NCBI GenBank assembly: GCA_003971905.1
Contig: RSEE01000051.1
Location: forward strand, 186,001 to 250,000
DNA from: Moniliella sp. 'wahieum'
Taxonomy: Eukaryota
Length of the DNA: 64,000 bases
Direction of reading: 5' to 3'
The first letter of the stretch is position 1, and each line of letters opens with the position of its first letter. This document shows positions 1 through 64,000 of this stretch, one piece after another. The notes beneath the pieces were generated by a model. It saw only the letters and a program-made list of their open reading frames with translations, had not been told where the DNA came from and did not search any database. The translations under genes were made by a program, and so were the position numbers.

Positions 1-971
1 TCCGGCCTCAGGGCCAGTCTTCCTGCGGAGCGCAATGCTGTGAAGCTTGAAGCTTGAAGCTTGAAGCCACTTGCGGCGCTGGGTACGTGCCTGGTTGCGG
101 GCTTTGGTGCGCCTTGGAGCTTGGAGCTGGGCGCACCCAGCTGGGTTGGCCTGTTCCTAAACATGCCCCGTGTCGATCCAGGTGCATCATGCATCACACA
201 TCACCGGCACCAAGCATCGCCTGGCAGTGCCTCCGCTCTCGCGTGGGCAGGCTGGGACTGGCGGTGTGTTCCTTCTCCACCCTCTGCTGCAGGGACGCAG
301 TCTGTTGTGTGGCCACCGTCACGCGTCACATGCTCCGTCGCTGCTCCCGCGCCACGGCGGGCGCGGGCTACCCGCAAAGGCACAAGGCCGCATGCTAAGC
401 GCTCACTCCTGCAAGACCCTCGTGCAAGAGCGATCCCTCTCGATCTGCCATAGCAACCGGAGCATGGCGCCAGTCCCATGCCATCTCCTGCTGCTCCAGC
501 CAGCTGATCGCGCTGCGGTACGTGCCAATCCACTGTTGTTCGAAACAGGCATGGCCCGATGCCCTGAGGCCCTGAGGCCTAAGGCAGGCCTGCAGCCTGA
601 AGCCGTGCTATGCATCATGCATCTTGAAACACCCTGCACCAATTCTCCCACACGGTGGCCTGGACGCTGTGTGGTGGTGGGCAAAGCGCAAGCCACGTTG
701 CGCCGGCCTCCGCCAGCGCCGCCTGCACCCCCCACTGGCCCCATGCAGTCACTGGATGCTCACGCGTGTTCTCATGTCACTCACATGTCCCCTGCAGCCC
801 ACCGTAACCCACCGACTCCCCCCTGGCACTCAAGTAGTGTTTAGGGGGCACCCACCAGCGCTTTTTGTTCCCACCCTCCACCACCTTCTGCTCCTCTTTC
901 TCAGCCCTCTCCCTTCTCCCCCCCCCTCACCGCTACACTCGTTCTCCTTTCCCACACTCTTTTACTGCACC

Positions 972-1635
972 ATGCGCTTCACTTCCTCTTTGCTGCTCTC
1001 GCCGCCGCGTCGGCTGTGTTCGCCAGCAGCCTGGCCGAGCAGATTGGCACCATCCCTGCTTCCTCCAGCTGCAACACACCGCATTTGAGGGGAACCTCAC
1101 TGACGCCCAGCGCACCGAGTTCGCCCAGCTTGCTACGGCCATCCACCAGCACAACTCCAAATCGCTCGCCGTCCTGACGGGCTCGACGGACGAAGCCAAG
1201 CAGCTGGTGCACGAGCTGCTCAACGGCTCCTTCACCTCCGTCAAGAGTATTCAGGCCAAGCTTTCGGCCCGCGCGAACGTTGAGGACGAATTGGCCGATG
1301 GCACCGTCTCGGCGTCCGGGGCGGCCAAGGAAATTGGGCTGGTTCCTTCCTTCATTCTGCTGAACCAAGAGGCATCCAAGCCCAACGCCTCGCCCGAAGC
1401 CATCGAGGCTCTTGTTCAGCAAGGTCTTACCATGCTTGCCAAGGGCTACAAGAAGGGCAGCCTCAAGGTTCTCCTTGGCACCGACAAGACCGGCACTGAG
1501 TTTTTGGCCAAGATCATTCGTGCCAAGTCGGAGGGCAAGACGCCGTCCGCCCGGAACGTCAAGCCTTCCTTTACCAACGAGGCGGCACGCCAAGCCCGTC
1601 GCGCTCACCTCGCTCGTCGGCGTGCGATGATCTAA
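972..1635 (+). CDS. Putative secreted protein of unknown function (about 220 aa)
   Basis: ATG at 972. A one-base correction gives a classic signal peptide MRFTSLFAALAAASAVFA, and a second correction joins ORF 865..1635 (FEGNLTDAQRTEFAQLA...RRAMI*). Strong third-position GC bias; pyrimidine-rich 5' and 3' flanks. Confidence 0.65.
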
Positions 1636-2618
1636 GCGCAGCTTTGTGCCGCCCTGGACACTCCCTCCTCCCCCACCATTTCTCAATTTCCCCATTTCCC
1701 CATTTCCTTTGATCACGCGGCTGTACCTCCTTGCTCTCTCCTCCCCCCCCCCCTTGCATGGGCGTTGGAGCACCTTTTCTTCTCTCCCATTATTTGCTTG
1801 CGTTACCTGGGAACAAACCACCGTTTTTATCCCTCCCTTGACCACTCCTTTGTTCCTCCTCTTCGCACGAGATGGGTCTTCGTTTTCTGTTTTGGGCTGT
1901 GTGCTGCATCCAATCTGTTTGCTTTCTCTCCCCTCGAGCAAAGTCTTGTCTGTATTGTAGTCTCGCTTGGGCTCCTGTTGGCATTGCGCGGTAGATGGAC
2001 GTGGTGCGTTGGTCTAGGACCTTCTCGTCTCCTAATGAAATGCACATTTGTTGAGTGGTGTGTACCGAGTGAGTACTGAGTACGTGGGTGAGCGGCGAGC
2101 GGCGAGCTACGTGCTGGTTCCGTGCTTGCTGTGTGGACGAGTGTCGGCGCGCCGGCGATCATCGAGATGATCGATCTCATCCTATTCATGATGCAAGATC
2201 TGAGCCTGGGTTGCAAGCGCTCGATTCCTCGGCAGCGGACGAGTCCAAGCTCGGATCGCTGTCCCTGTACTTGATCTGCGGCAGCCTCTCGGACACAGTT
2301 GACGAGTCAGCTAGTCGGCCCCAAGTATGAATCACCAGAGGTTAGGCTGAGCCCGAGGCAGGCTAGCGCTGAGGCACGGCAGGCATGGACACATCGACAT
2401 TACGGCATCATGCATGGACGCGCGACGCGTGACGCCTGATGCAACGTTCCAGTCGAAGTTCTATGGAAAACATTCCGCTGCACCCCGAGGCCAATTCCGA
2501 TGCCTTTTCGTTCCGCTCAGGTGACGGGCGTCGCCAAGCTAGCATGAAGGAAAAACGAGAGGTGCGGACGCTCCGTCTGTTGGTTTTGTTCTACCACCCC
2601 CACTCCTGCGTGTTGACC

Positions 2619-3124
2619 ATGTTCGCTGCTCTCCGTGCTGCCTCGATTAAGACGCCTGTCTCTGCCCTGGGCGCTGCCCGTGCGCTCTCGAACTCCGCCG
2701 TGGCCAAGGACGTTTCGCGTCTGACGGTTGTGGGCCGTGTGGTGAACGTGTCGGAACCGCGGCAGACGGCCAACGGGTCCGAATTCGTCGCCTACACTAT
2801 CGCTACCAACGACCCCGTCTCCAAGGACAACCGCCTACCTCCACCTTCCACCGCATCTACGCGTTTGGCTCCCACGCCGTCGAGCGCGTCACCTCCCTGG
2901 GCAAGGGCGACCTGGTGTTCGCCGAGGCGGATCTGCGGATCGAACGCGTGTTGGGCACCGAGGACCAGCCCACTACTGAACGCGTCCTTTCTGCTCACCG
3001 TACGTCCCCCCCTCCCCTCCCCCGTTCTTATCCACCTTGGCCTTCCCCTATGCTCACCACTTTGCTTGTTCCCCGCAGGCTCCCTCAACGTCCTCAGCGG
3101 AACAAGCCCAAGTCGGATGAATAA
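2619..3124 (+). CDS. RIM1: Mitochondrial single-stranded DNA-binding protein (SSB OB-fold)
   Basis: Presequence-like MFAALRAASIKTPVSALGAARALSNS, then SSB-like SRLTVVGRV...FVAYTIATND; shifted frames give LGKGDLVFAEADLRI. Intron 3000-3078 (GTACGT...CTCAC...CAG). Confidence 0.8.
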
Positions 3125-62079: not shown

Positions 62080-62121
62080 ATCGTTATCGTTATCGTTGTC
62101 GTTGTCGTTGTCGTTGTCGTT
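62080..62121 (+). repeat. (RTCGTT)7 hexamer microsatellite in the RPL13 5' intron
   Basis: ATCGTT/GTCGTT tandem units between branch point TACTGAC and acceptor TTTTGCAG. Confidence 0.9.
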
Positions 62122-62128
62122 TTGCAGG

Positions 62129-62749
62129 ATGGGTTTCCGGCACAACAACATCCTTCACAACAACCACTTCCGCAAGGACTGGCAGCGCCGGGTCAATGTG
62201 TGGTTTGACCAGCCCGGCGCCAAGAAGCGCAGGCGCAATGCCCGCGCTGGGAAGGTGGCGCGTTCCGGTCTGAAGCCCGTCGACTCGCTTCGCCCCGTTG
62301 TGCGCTGCCCGACGCTCAAGTACAACCGCAAGCTGCGTGCCGGACGTGGGTTTACCCTTGAGGAGCTCAAGGCCGCTGGTGTGCCCCAGAAGCTCGCTCG
62401 CGTGATTGGCATCTCGGTCGACCACCGCCGCAAGAACCGTTCGGAGGAAGGCTTGCGCCTCAACATTGAGCGTGTCAAGGCTTACCGTGAGCGTGTGGTG
62501 GTGATCCCTGCCAAGGGCAAGGGCGCCAAGCTCGCCGAGCTCGCCTCGGCCCCCAAGGTGGAGAACGTGGCGGCTGCGTTCCCCATTCCTGCCGGCACGG
62601 TGGCTGAGAAGCCCCGTGCGATCACCCAGGAGGAGAAGGACTTTGAGGCCTTCAAGACTCTCCGCCATGCGCGCAACACCCACCGCCAGGCAGGCTTCCG
62701 TGCGGCTCACCAGGCCAAGAAGGAGGCCGAAGAGAAGGCCAAGAAGTAA
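62129..62749 (+). CDS. RPL13: 60S ribosomal protein L13 (eL13)
   Basis: Intact ORF MGFRHNNILHNNHFRKDWQRRVNVWFDQP...LRPVVRCPTLKYNRKLRAGRGFTLEELKAAG...VDHRRKNRSEE. Confidence 0.98.
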   Translation: MGFRHNNILHNNHFRKDWQRRVNVWFDQPGAKKRRRNARAGKVARSGLKPVDSLRPVVRCPTLKYNRKLRAGRGFTLEELKAAGVPQKLARVIGISVDHRRKNRSEEGLRLNIERVKAYRERVVVIPAKGKGAKLAELASAPKVENVAAAFPIPAGTVAEKPRAITQEEKDFEAFKTLRHARNTHRQAGFRAAHQAKKEAEEKAKK

Positions 62750-64000
62750 TCGGATTCCCTTACGATGGTCCTTGTTCCTCTTGGTCCTTGTTCCACTTGA
62801 CCATGACCTCCTCTCTTTCCGCACCTTTGACCAGCCTCTCTCATGCTCTCACCCCAAAATGGGCTCTTGTCTACCCCTGCCGGAGCAGCTGGTGCGGTTC
62901 AGCGCTCTTGTGCTGCGGGATCCTGGTTCCCCAAGCTCACCTGTATGCCATGCTGTTGGCGCAGCGAGGGTAGTGGGCTCCCTGCCTGACAGCCCAAATC
63001 CTTATGTCCAACCTACCAGGTGCTTTGCTTCGGTGCCCACTGGGTGCTTGTAGTTGCGCAACGTAGCAGACAAAAGGTAGCAGAATGTAGGTGGGACTCG
63101 CTGGTTAAGCTTAACTTTAAGGGACGTAGCCTGAAAGGTTAAACATACAACGTACGTCTTCAGAAAATGTAACTTTCAATATCAGCTGGACGGCACCCAT
63201 GCCAATTAATAAGTAGCACGTGACCCTTGAGACTACTGGGGCTGTGCGGTACTGGTACTCTGGTACTCTGGCTGAGCTTGAAGCTTGAAGGGTCAACGTT
63301 TCAACTCAACTCATTCCCTCACCGGTCACCGGTCACCGGTCACCAAACCTTGCCCCTCACACCCGATTCTATTCCATGACTTCGTCGATCCGATGCAGCC
63401 CCTTCAAAGCCTTCTCTCAGCGGCGGCGCGCCTGCGCCCAAGTACGTCAAGTGGGTGCGTATTCTCCCTTGCGCGTCCTCTCTGCCCAGCGTCCGGCTGG
63501 TCCGTTGAGCGGTGAGCGCTGAGTTGAGCGTGGAGCGTTGGGGGTCACACTGTTAACATCGGCCTGTCCTTTTGTCATATCTGCCCTTCGGCTTGGGTAC
63601 TGCGTATGTCTGTAGCTCGGATGGTGGGGCAACATCTCTGGGTATGGCCAGGTCGTCCAGGCTCAGCGTGGCATTATCACCTACAGTATGTCTTTCTCCT
63701 TCCCCCGCGTTCGCTCGTCCCCGTGGACAAGGTCGTTGCAGGTGGTTTTGTGGCTATAGTGACCGGTACGCTTACGCAGTTGGTACGATCCCTGCGTGGG
63801 TGGTTGGTCCGGCGCCGCTTACCACCGCGATCTTTCCTGCTTCTTCTTCCTGTGCCCTGGGATCGATTGGTCCTCGCTCGATCCCTCCTTGCCCCCCGAC
63901 CTGGTGGTCTATGGACGTTCTTGCCCCCCCCCCCCTCCCCCCCATTGGCTAACCGAACGAAACATCTCTATTTCGCAGCTCTGTCGCCCAACCAGGTGAG

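Follow-up and report, generated by a model that had tools for sequence, protein, structure and literature searches.

What process writes tandem palindromes with a 7-bp period into the intergenic DNA of a fungal genome? The question is raised by a 64,000-nucleotide stretch of Moniliella sp. 'wahieum' (assembly GCA_003971905.1, contig RSEE01000051.1, positions 186,001 to 250,000; hereafter the window, C51:186001-250000), in whose spacers 4-bp palindromic cores alternate with the trinucleotide TNA. The answer that we favor, with a probability of roughly 0.8, is that these arrays are stacked excision footprints, or scars, of an EnSpm/CACTA-like cut-and-paste transposon lineage which duplicates a 7-bp TNA-centred site, and that they arose via hairpins on the flanking DNA opened 2 nucleotides from the tip.

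The arrays and their statistics

The arrays are a real feature of this DNA and not an artefact. An earlier note on the window had described intergenic runs of 6-bp palindromes of the form A-nnnn-T, separated by one base, and all 18 stretches that it listed beforehand sit at their coordinates. The excess of palindromic cores that it implied is borne out: within the 39 kb predicted to be non-coding, TNA-[4-bp palindrome]-TNA is found 50 times versus 3.4 in order-3 Markov controls, against 67 occurrences versus 55 expected for non-palindromic cores in the non-coding DNA of the window. In predicted coding sequence (CDS), outside which all examples of the note lie, the palindromic form occurs once versus 1.2 expected, and perfect period-7 runs of at least two copies number 38 versus 3.5 in dinucleotide shuffles of the window. 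Periods 6, 8 and 9 exceed their shuffles too (58 versus 13, 16 versus 0.7 and 9 versus 0.1). An A-nnnn-T palindrome is present in 18 of the 38 period-7 runs, another palindrome in 2 and none in 18. Ten distinct A-nnnn-T cores occur in these runs, in line with the note's at least ten; the corrected total for the window is 13, and all 16 possible cores are present in a larger 451-kb sample (C51, C26 and C1), where AGCT, TCGA, TGCA and ACGT are the commonest. The fixed 7-bp spacing also stands, but the pattern is better described as built from TNA-centred sites of 7 bp than from 6-bp palindromes with a spacer base, and 8- and 9-nucleotide versions of the same rule occur as well. By the same count in the window, CNG and GNC centres show no excess and the ANT centre (8 versus 3 expected) falls far under TNA; cores of length 2 show no excess, and those of length 6 number 3 versus 0.6 expected. 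Genome-wide, one palindromic array 17-mer has 2,280 matches, its reversal none, and a non-palindromic 17-mer of the same composition a single one. CDS were mapped with our own Markov model, which recalls 85-95% of conserved blocks, misses some genes and does not set introns apart; motif positions were masked during decoding. On this map the lattice of the 451-kb sample comprises 409 loci where the DNA is predicted to be non-coding, as against 7 inside predicted CDS.

The insertion rule

Several homologous copies of each region are present in the assembly. The window has homologues in C147 and C26, each 80-84% identical to it in genes, and these two are about 96.5% identical to each other, spacers included. 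As C147/C26 and C1/C55 are sister haplotypes, fresh mutations are directly visible between them. We aligned both pairs (121 kb of non-coding and 84 kb of coding columns), counting gaps only where they had clean 10-nucleotide flanks and excluding segments under 75% identity from substitution counts. The rule is that each event adds to a 7-bp site xy-TNA-uv two bases that invert the end of that site, together with a second copy of five of its bases, sometimes of six or seven and never clearly of more. Clean non-coding indels of 5, 6, 7, 8 and 9 nucleotides number 35, 35, 75, 28 and 17, and a single 7-nucleotide indel lies in CDS. The rule is obeyed by 44 of the 75 non-coding 7-nucleotide indels, and 18 of the 75 are plain tandem copies. 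Non-tandem cases make up 58 of all 76 clean 7-nucleotide indels; 35 of these contain a 5-nucleotide copy of the flank, 29 of the 35 also have the last two bases appended in reverse complement, and a full TNA is present at 22 of these 29 fresh events. Indels of 6, 8 and 9 nucleotides have the same two inverted bases with 4, 6 and 7 copied ones (eight non-tandem cases at TNA), the inverted end always lying 2 nucleotides beyond the A of TNA. In the standing sequence the copied length falls steeply past 7 (TNA-registered counts of 495, 56, 39, 1 and 2 for 5, 6, 7, 8 and 9 bases), which implies that the substrate was two copies of the site xy-TNA-uv.

Static sequence agrees with the haplotype differences. 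At 245 of 326 single-link loci a dinucleotide of the flank recurs in the core. A junction matrix over 299 kb of non-coding DNA gives 252 cases versus 1.8 expected for a full 2-nucleotide inversion with the other end recessed to T, 50 versus 0.9 for the +8 class and 28 versus 0.3 for the +9 class, with only 2 and 1 for +10 and +11, and one case in which both ends keep inverted bases. Plain duplications of a 7-bp site (30 versus 0.5 expected) may be slippage products. In mixed arrays a core matching the left flank precedes one matching the right flank in 15 of 24 cases and the reverse order is never seen (p=3e-5); the remaining 9 contain a core that matches neither flank. The flank-templated cores and the 29 indels with copied plus inverted bases thus uphold hairpin opening anchored at TNA, one half of the first option of the earlier note; its other half, fold-back template switching, fares poorly, as discussed below. 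The note had recognized neither the 7-bp target duplication nor the transposon. A pair of haplotypes gives no polarity on its own, and that the derived allele is the insertion we infer from the excess of structure together with two weak multi-copy cases, the two usable junctions, at which 2 of the 4 further copies and 2 of the 3 further copies, respectively, have the short form. Inspection by eye of 18 copies of one repeat resembling a long terminal repeat (LTR) found no rule insertion and one plain 7-nucleotide duplication. The notion that microhomology at the T alone sets the +7 size was dropped, since events without that T are also +7. The scars look neutral, and their scarcity in CDS needs no targeting, because a 7-nucleotide insertion shifts the frame.

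A transposon family with matching target sites

A family with terminal inverted repeats (TIRs) duplicates sites of the kind on which the rule operates. It has ends CTCACTG, an 83-bp TIR at 93% identity and short subterminal repeats, and the 20 ends found in our searches comprise five 4.9-kb copies (99-100% identical across 1.5 kb), a 378-bp miniature inverted-repeat transposable element (MITE) and single ends. Identical 7-bp target-site duplications (TSDs) flank five of the six complete copies; the sixth, on C11, adjoins a 67-bp deletion relative to its sister C54. All 13 flank 7-mers are TNA-centred, versus roughly 7% of positions; orthologous pairs were counted once, and a C8 orthologue with two extra end bases and a C41 pattern match that is not a family member were left out. 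The four commonest cores of the lattice are those predicted by the A/T-TNA-A/T preference of the resident copies. Frameshifted pieces in the TIR copies match a profile of EnSpm-type transposases, built from 55 PF02992-type (Transposase_21-type DDE) relatives, with E-values of 3.6e-8 and 6e-5 over profile positions 362-643. The C(2)C motif and the conserved His and Glu align in them, and the H(3-4)H pair is blurred across frameshifts. These pieces, held by the long copies, represent the C-terminal half of the transposase, and a piece of another repeat occupies the place of the N-terminal half.

Sister haplotypes allow occupied sites to be compared with their homologues. On C29 the element stands between two copies of GTTGATG, and the sister C53 reads GTTGATG-CA-TGATG, exactly the predicted +7 scar. 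At the C35 element the sister contig C46 has the 7-mer once, so the duplication at C35 is a true target duplication. A scar is thus found at one of two informative sister sites, and by chance a fresh scar would be met at about 0.5% of TNA sites per haplotype. Other copies gave no information: the sister site is rearranged for C23 and adjoins the 67-bp deletion for C11, the C34 copy has no close sister contig, and the C20 MITE is embedded in a repeat of high copy number and has a deletion next to it.

Some further features of the family were recorded. At C8:478650-478850, compared with the C23 ortholog, two additional bases, identical to the inverted end of the target site, separate that site from the TIR; they could be a P addition or slippage. 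On C11 the young element replaces 67 bp of apparent coding DNA of C54, and both its flank 7-mers differ from C54 towards the target consensus (3 changes in 14 nucleotides). The MITE (C20:546811-547188) lies inside an LTR-like repeat with at least 40 matches listed of 332 candidates. Scans for TIRs plus TSDs in the first 500 kb and later in about 880 kb of sampled DNA found no element beyond this MITE, and among the first 30 loci of a TNA-plus-terminus pattern there was one true element end. A 214-bp repeat and other families of the sample, considered as candidates, turned out to be LTR-like pieces with 5-bp TSDs and no tie to TNA.

Proposed mechanism

These observations are consistent with the following course of events: 1) Insertion at xy-TNA-uv would duplicate 7 bp, as is seen for the resident family. 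2) Excision would seal both flanks into exact hairpins, to which the even-centred inverted dinucleotides point. 3) A host nuclease would open each hairpin 2 nucleotides past its tip, leaving the 4-nucleotide 3' overhangs uvv'u' and y'x'xy, with the recessed strand of each opened end beginning at the T of TNA. 4) End joining would usually retain one overhang and lose the other, the retained strand being ligated to the recessed strand of the other end; this would give the xyTNA-uvv'u'-TNAuv that is observed or its mirror image, with a net gain of 7 and a core from the right or left flank respectively, and the +8 and +9 products that are also observed would keep one or two further bases. 5) The scar would hold two TNA sites, one of them palindromic, and later hits or slippage could lengthen the array in register, the overhangs of a palindromic site being cohesive. 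Mixed arrays would require repeat hits, and long pure arrays are probably best ascribed to slippage. Selection against frameshifts would purge scars from genes.

Artemis opens hairpins at +1 to +4, mainly at +2, leaving 4-nucleotide 3' overhangs (PMC2175297), and the opening proposed at +2 matches this chemistry. A domain of the SNM1/Artemis family (PF07522) occurs once above cut-off in the genome and is assigned to family level. EnSpm has motifs in common with Transib and RAG1 (PMC12730594), and hAT, Transib, RAG and Muta1 hairpin the flanking DNA (PMC5499845).

Objections and alternative explanations

Several points weigh against excision footprints of this lineage. At the level of the rule, 31 of the 75 non-coding 7-nucleotide indels lie outside it, and only part of TNA is present at 7 of the 29 fresh non-tandem +7 events. 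The single occupied-site pair is itself ambiguous: the C29 and C34 copies are almost the same in sequence, while the flanks of the former differ by 8% from C53. Its insertion thus seems to postdate the split of the haplotypes, and the pair then calls for conversion or for a favored site that was used again. The family as seen does not explain most scars. Of the flanks of its resident copies, 10 of 13 have A/T on either side of TNA, versus 5 of 30 fresh scars (p=3e-4), and this narrower target means that the resident family alone leaves most scars unexplained; the mismatch could stem from other families, from the survival of flanks that excise poorly, or from cutting that inserts nothing. Moreover, only 20 element ends stand against roughly 58,000 loci across all subgenomes, a figure extrapolated from non-randomly drawn regions (mean 0.9 loci per kb in sampled DNA, regional range 0.7-1.5 links per kb). 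As to the enzyme, the profile match detects no first-aspartate region in the 4.9-kb copies, and the searches found no intact TIR-flanked transposase. An EnSpm-like gene at C17:555595-559041 and on C62 is present in both haplotypes but TIR-less, and has His at the first catalytic Asp in both. A near full-length EnSpm-like transposase gene (C34:513408-516695) keeps D-D-E, but it is frameshifted, in an assembly that is noisy, and no TIR was seen in the 20 kb examined. Finally, the literature consulted shows no flank hairpins for EnSpm itself. The footprints of Spm and Tam1 have been explained by the hairpin model, on which a literature search returned nothing.

The C34 gene lies 8-10 kb from a 4.9-kb TIR copy and is a candidate trans-acting enzyme. 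With the C17 transposase as query, a word-based search gave no homologue and a full search gave 437 relatives at 25-40% identity. An internally deleted relative of the C17/C62 gene lies at another locus (C65; C17:409-411 kb), also in both haplotypes. Neither the hAT domain PF05699 nor the KDZ domain matched in the genome by an insensitive search, in which controls for the former also gave none.

The most radical version of the transposon explanation, which we regard as a possible but doubtful extension, makes a RAG-like EnSpm-derived transposase mainly a germ-line writer of sequence, cutting TNA sites all over the non-coding DNA, sealing and reopening the flanks in the manner of V(D)J coding ends and leaving templated +7 joints, with elements inserted briefly or never; brief or absent insertion would account for tens of thousands of joints beside about a dozen element copies. 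If true, coding-joint formation would have a natural and heritable equivalent that acts across the whole genome, and minisatellites a new source of seeds. A related explanation, to which we give only a small chance, is that an EnSpm-like transposase, possibly TIR-less and kept by the host, or another hairpin-forming nuclease makes the 7-nucleotide staggered cut at TNA and the hairpins with no lasting insertion, most scars then never having flanked an element. Scars exceeding element ends by about three orders of magnitude, their broader sites compared with resident TSDs, the lack of TIRs in both transposase genes found and the apparent youth of the C29 copy would all fit such cutting. Set against this, hairpins that end two full 7-mers can form only once the duplication has been filled in, a direct consequence of an inserted element; the gene on C17/C62 is without its first catalytic Asp; a long-lived low-copy element could have left thousands of neutral scars; and further families with 7-bp TSDs may simply be undiscovered.

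Replication template switching, in which a nascent strand turns back for two bases of synthesis and then anneals anew at the T of TNA, with no transposon involved, yields the same +7 product on paper, and 10-bp palindromes with a complemented centre are mildly enriched among unexplained links (23 versus 12 other changes). It nevertheless gives no reason for the TNA centre, the fixed 2-nucleotide inversion or the cap at 7 copied bases; 5 of the 7 fresh +7 events with incomplete TNA lack the very T required for re-annealing; and elements with matching 7-bp TSDs exist, one of them paired with a scar. We consider it very unlikely. Binding sites of one or several dimeric factors kept by promoter selection, akin to the factor reading TNA half-sites that the earlier note had offered, are scarcely credible in spite of a density of 2.2 per kb between divergent genes versus 1.6 for convergent and 1.4 for tandem ones: all 16 cores occur and track the flank without a fixed consensus, motifs are common in convergent spacers and within repeats, and their positions are not conserved between haplotypes (substitutions 3.3% versus 3.3-4.9% in controls, gapped 36% versus 21-26%), though some scars could have been co-opted as regulatory sites. 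Ordinary slippage or a basecalling or assembly artefact has next to nothing to commend it, for in spite of a noisy assembly (the 84 kb of CDS that were aligned show 377 one-base indels), the tandem minority of 7-nucleotide indels and one array that differs by 49 nucleotides between haplotypes, the inverted dinucleotides of the 29 non-tandem indels are impossible by slippage, the first added unit is mostly not tandem (later ones can be), 7-nucleotide indels avoid CDS as one-base errors do not, and the sister contig shows 246 of 476 motif calls in identical form.

Relation to known systems

EnSpm/CACTA elements have TIRs with subterminal repeats, and subterminal repeats are common to them and the family with CTCACTG ends. 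The family further resembles EnSpm/CACTA and the CMCT clade (ESTA, Plavaka) in its transposase profile match, the C(2)C motif and CACTG in the TIRs, but CMCT elements mostly have 5'-CA..TG-3' ends and TSDs of 2-5 bp (PMC12730594), and here the ends are CTCACTG, with CACTG starting 2 nucleotides inside, and the TSD is 7 bp; CNEST of Cryptococcus makes 2-bp TSDs (PMC12810828). Both shifts would amount to 2 nucleotides outward, from the canonical end and from a 3-bp TNA site. As CA..TG ends and a 2-5 bp TSD are both lacking, we describe the element as EnSpm-like by its predicted transposase and do not file it as canonical CACTA. TSDs of 7 bp are known in basidiomycetes from hAT7 and Kyakuja (PMC12730594, PMC4455052), but these have other transposases, Kyakuja is without TIRs, and the parts of PMC12730594 consulted describe no TNA target or scar lattice for them.

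By analogy the scars would work like RAG/Transib or hAT excision. They resemble the P nucleotides of V(D)J coding joints, made from RAG hairpins by Artemis:DNA-PKcs, which are even-centred inverted bases from the end itself with 2 nucleotides dominant; they differ in being stereotyped (net +7), inherited, genome-wide and placed on a target duplication, whereas most V(D)J joints lose the P bases (PMC2175297). Footprints of Ac/Ds (hAT) in plants, budding yeast and Candida likewise consist of palindromic insertions and short deletions from hairpinned flanks and end joining (PMC5873905), but the Ac palindromes centre on the complement of the bordering base and are odd, in contrast to the even 4-bp palindromes here, and the Ac/Ds TSD is 8 rather than 7 bp (PMC5873905). 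An Ac-type scar is ruled out by this parity. Muta1 (MULE) shares hairpinning of the flanking DNA and a long TSD, but its TSD is 8-9 bp and more than 90% of its excisions in yeast are precise (PMC5499845). A literature search that left out most subscription papers, Repbase and the supplements of PMC12730594 yielded no account of a scar lattice spanning a genome, nor of 7-bp TSDs in an EnSpm-like family.

If the arrays are excision footprints as proposed, hairpin footprints, known from single reporter loci, would here be a main source of small indels, as the 44 rule-following cases among the 75 differences suggest. The scars would then be a dated record of where a DNA transposon had been, long after its departure, and a route to short tandem repeats that starts without slippage. 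They would also supply sequence evidence for an EnSpm-like transposase hairpinning its flanks as RAG does, in a CMCT-like lineage whose 7-bp duplication goes beyond the 2-5 bp range of PMC12730594. Such palindromic arrays are easily misread as transcription-factor motifs, against which they stand as a warning.

Features of the window

The scars of the window are as follows, with the strand where one is assigned; no TIR of the EnSpm-like family lies inside the 64 kb.

39..67: site TG-TGA-AG, extended by three +7 units of core AGCT; the right flank is the template of the first
185..198: one +7 scar, core TGCA
317..330: one +7 scar, core CGCG
563..584: +8 variant and adjoining +7 link, core GGCC
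2068..2081: one +7 scar, core GTAC
3449..3462: one +7 scar, core TGCA
3545..3558: one +7 scar, core ACGT
4119..4132: +7 scar, TTA centre, core CGCG
4409..4435: two adjacent links, core GGCC
15477..15492, minus strand: +9 variant, complete 7-bp site copied plus 2 inverted bases
17163..17183: mixed array, site GT-TCA-AT, left core ACGT from the left flank and right core ATAT from the right flank; two separate events
19660..19673: +7 link, palindromic site, core CGCG
21434..21454: site AA-TGA-AG with two +7 units, core AGCT
22100..22113: one +7 scar, core GGCC, directly beyond the end of an acetyl-CoA synthetase gene
25311..25325, plus strand: +8 variant, core CTAG
25460..25480: two +7 units, core CGCG
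25586..25601, plus strand: +9 variant, core GGCC
26840..26853: one +7 scar, core GATC
27190..27277: +7 scar, core TTAA (27190-27203), and +8 variant (27263-27277)
27712..27732: two +7 links, core AGCT
28222..28236, plus strand: +8 variant
28846..28859: one +7 scar, core ACGT
35849..35862: one +7 scar, core GCGC
42768..42781: one +7 scar, core TCGA
45760..45834: cluster of two +7 units at TAA (GGCC), +7 scar (AGCT), +8 variant and TCGA link
46383..46396: one +7 scar, core GATC
51415..51428: one +7 scar, core TCGA
51826..51840, plus strand: +8 variant, core CATG
52191..52314: cluster of +9 (52191), +7 and +9 (52213-52235, CGCG) and +7 (52301, AATT)
52609..52724: +7 scar, core ACGT, and +9 variant (52709-52724)
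55198..55212: +8 variant
60893..60906: one +7 scar, core GATC
63277..63290: +7 link, palindromic site, core AGCT
63317..63344: site CC-TCA-CC, extended by three +7 units of core CCGG; the first is not a tandem copy, since the left flank is non-complementary

Genome context

The assembly comprises 69.5 Mb in 223 contigs, and the genes of the window are eukaryotic housekeeping genes. Ribosomal protein L13 shares 62-69% identity with its named counterparts in Tilletia, Tilletiaria, Malassezia and Acaromyces, and only unnamed proteins are closer, which marks the fungus as a divergent smut-related basidiomycete. Another region of the assembly is present as four copies, and the whole combines two lineages that resemble each other by about 70-84% in genes and have up to two haplotypes apiece. 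Young transposon copies that are nearly identical occur both on contigs with a close sister and on contigs without one (C11, C54, C47 and C10 among the contigs compared); if the genome is a hybrid, young copies may cross subgenomes. The one-base indels in CDS, by which many genes are broken, look like long-read errors. Solo-LTR-like insertions with 5-6 bp duplications differ between haplotypes in both aligned pairs, and the synteny of C1 and C55 stops near C1:176 kb. In 79 metagenome loci with the same 19-mer there was no lattice of other cores (34 palindromic versus 554 non-palindromic links, compared with 146 versus 188 in 30 loci of this genome). Within the window, a tRNA-like gene at 4553-4642 (plus strand), which received no ARAGORN assignment, has 34 similar copies at 83-96% identity elsewhere in the genome and is either a tRNA family or a tRNA-derived repeat. 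A predicted coding stretch at 965-1634 (plus strand) has no Pfam match, is about 80% conserved in both homologous contigs and shows an apparent frameshift near its start.

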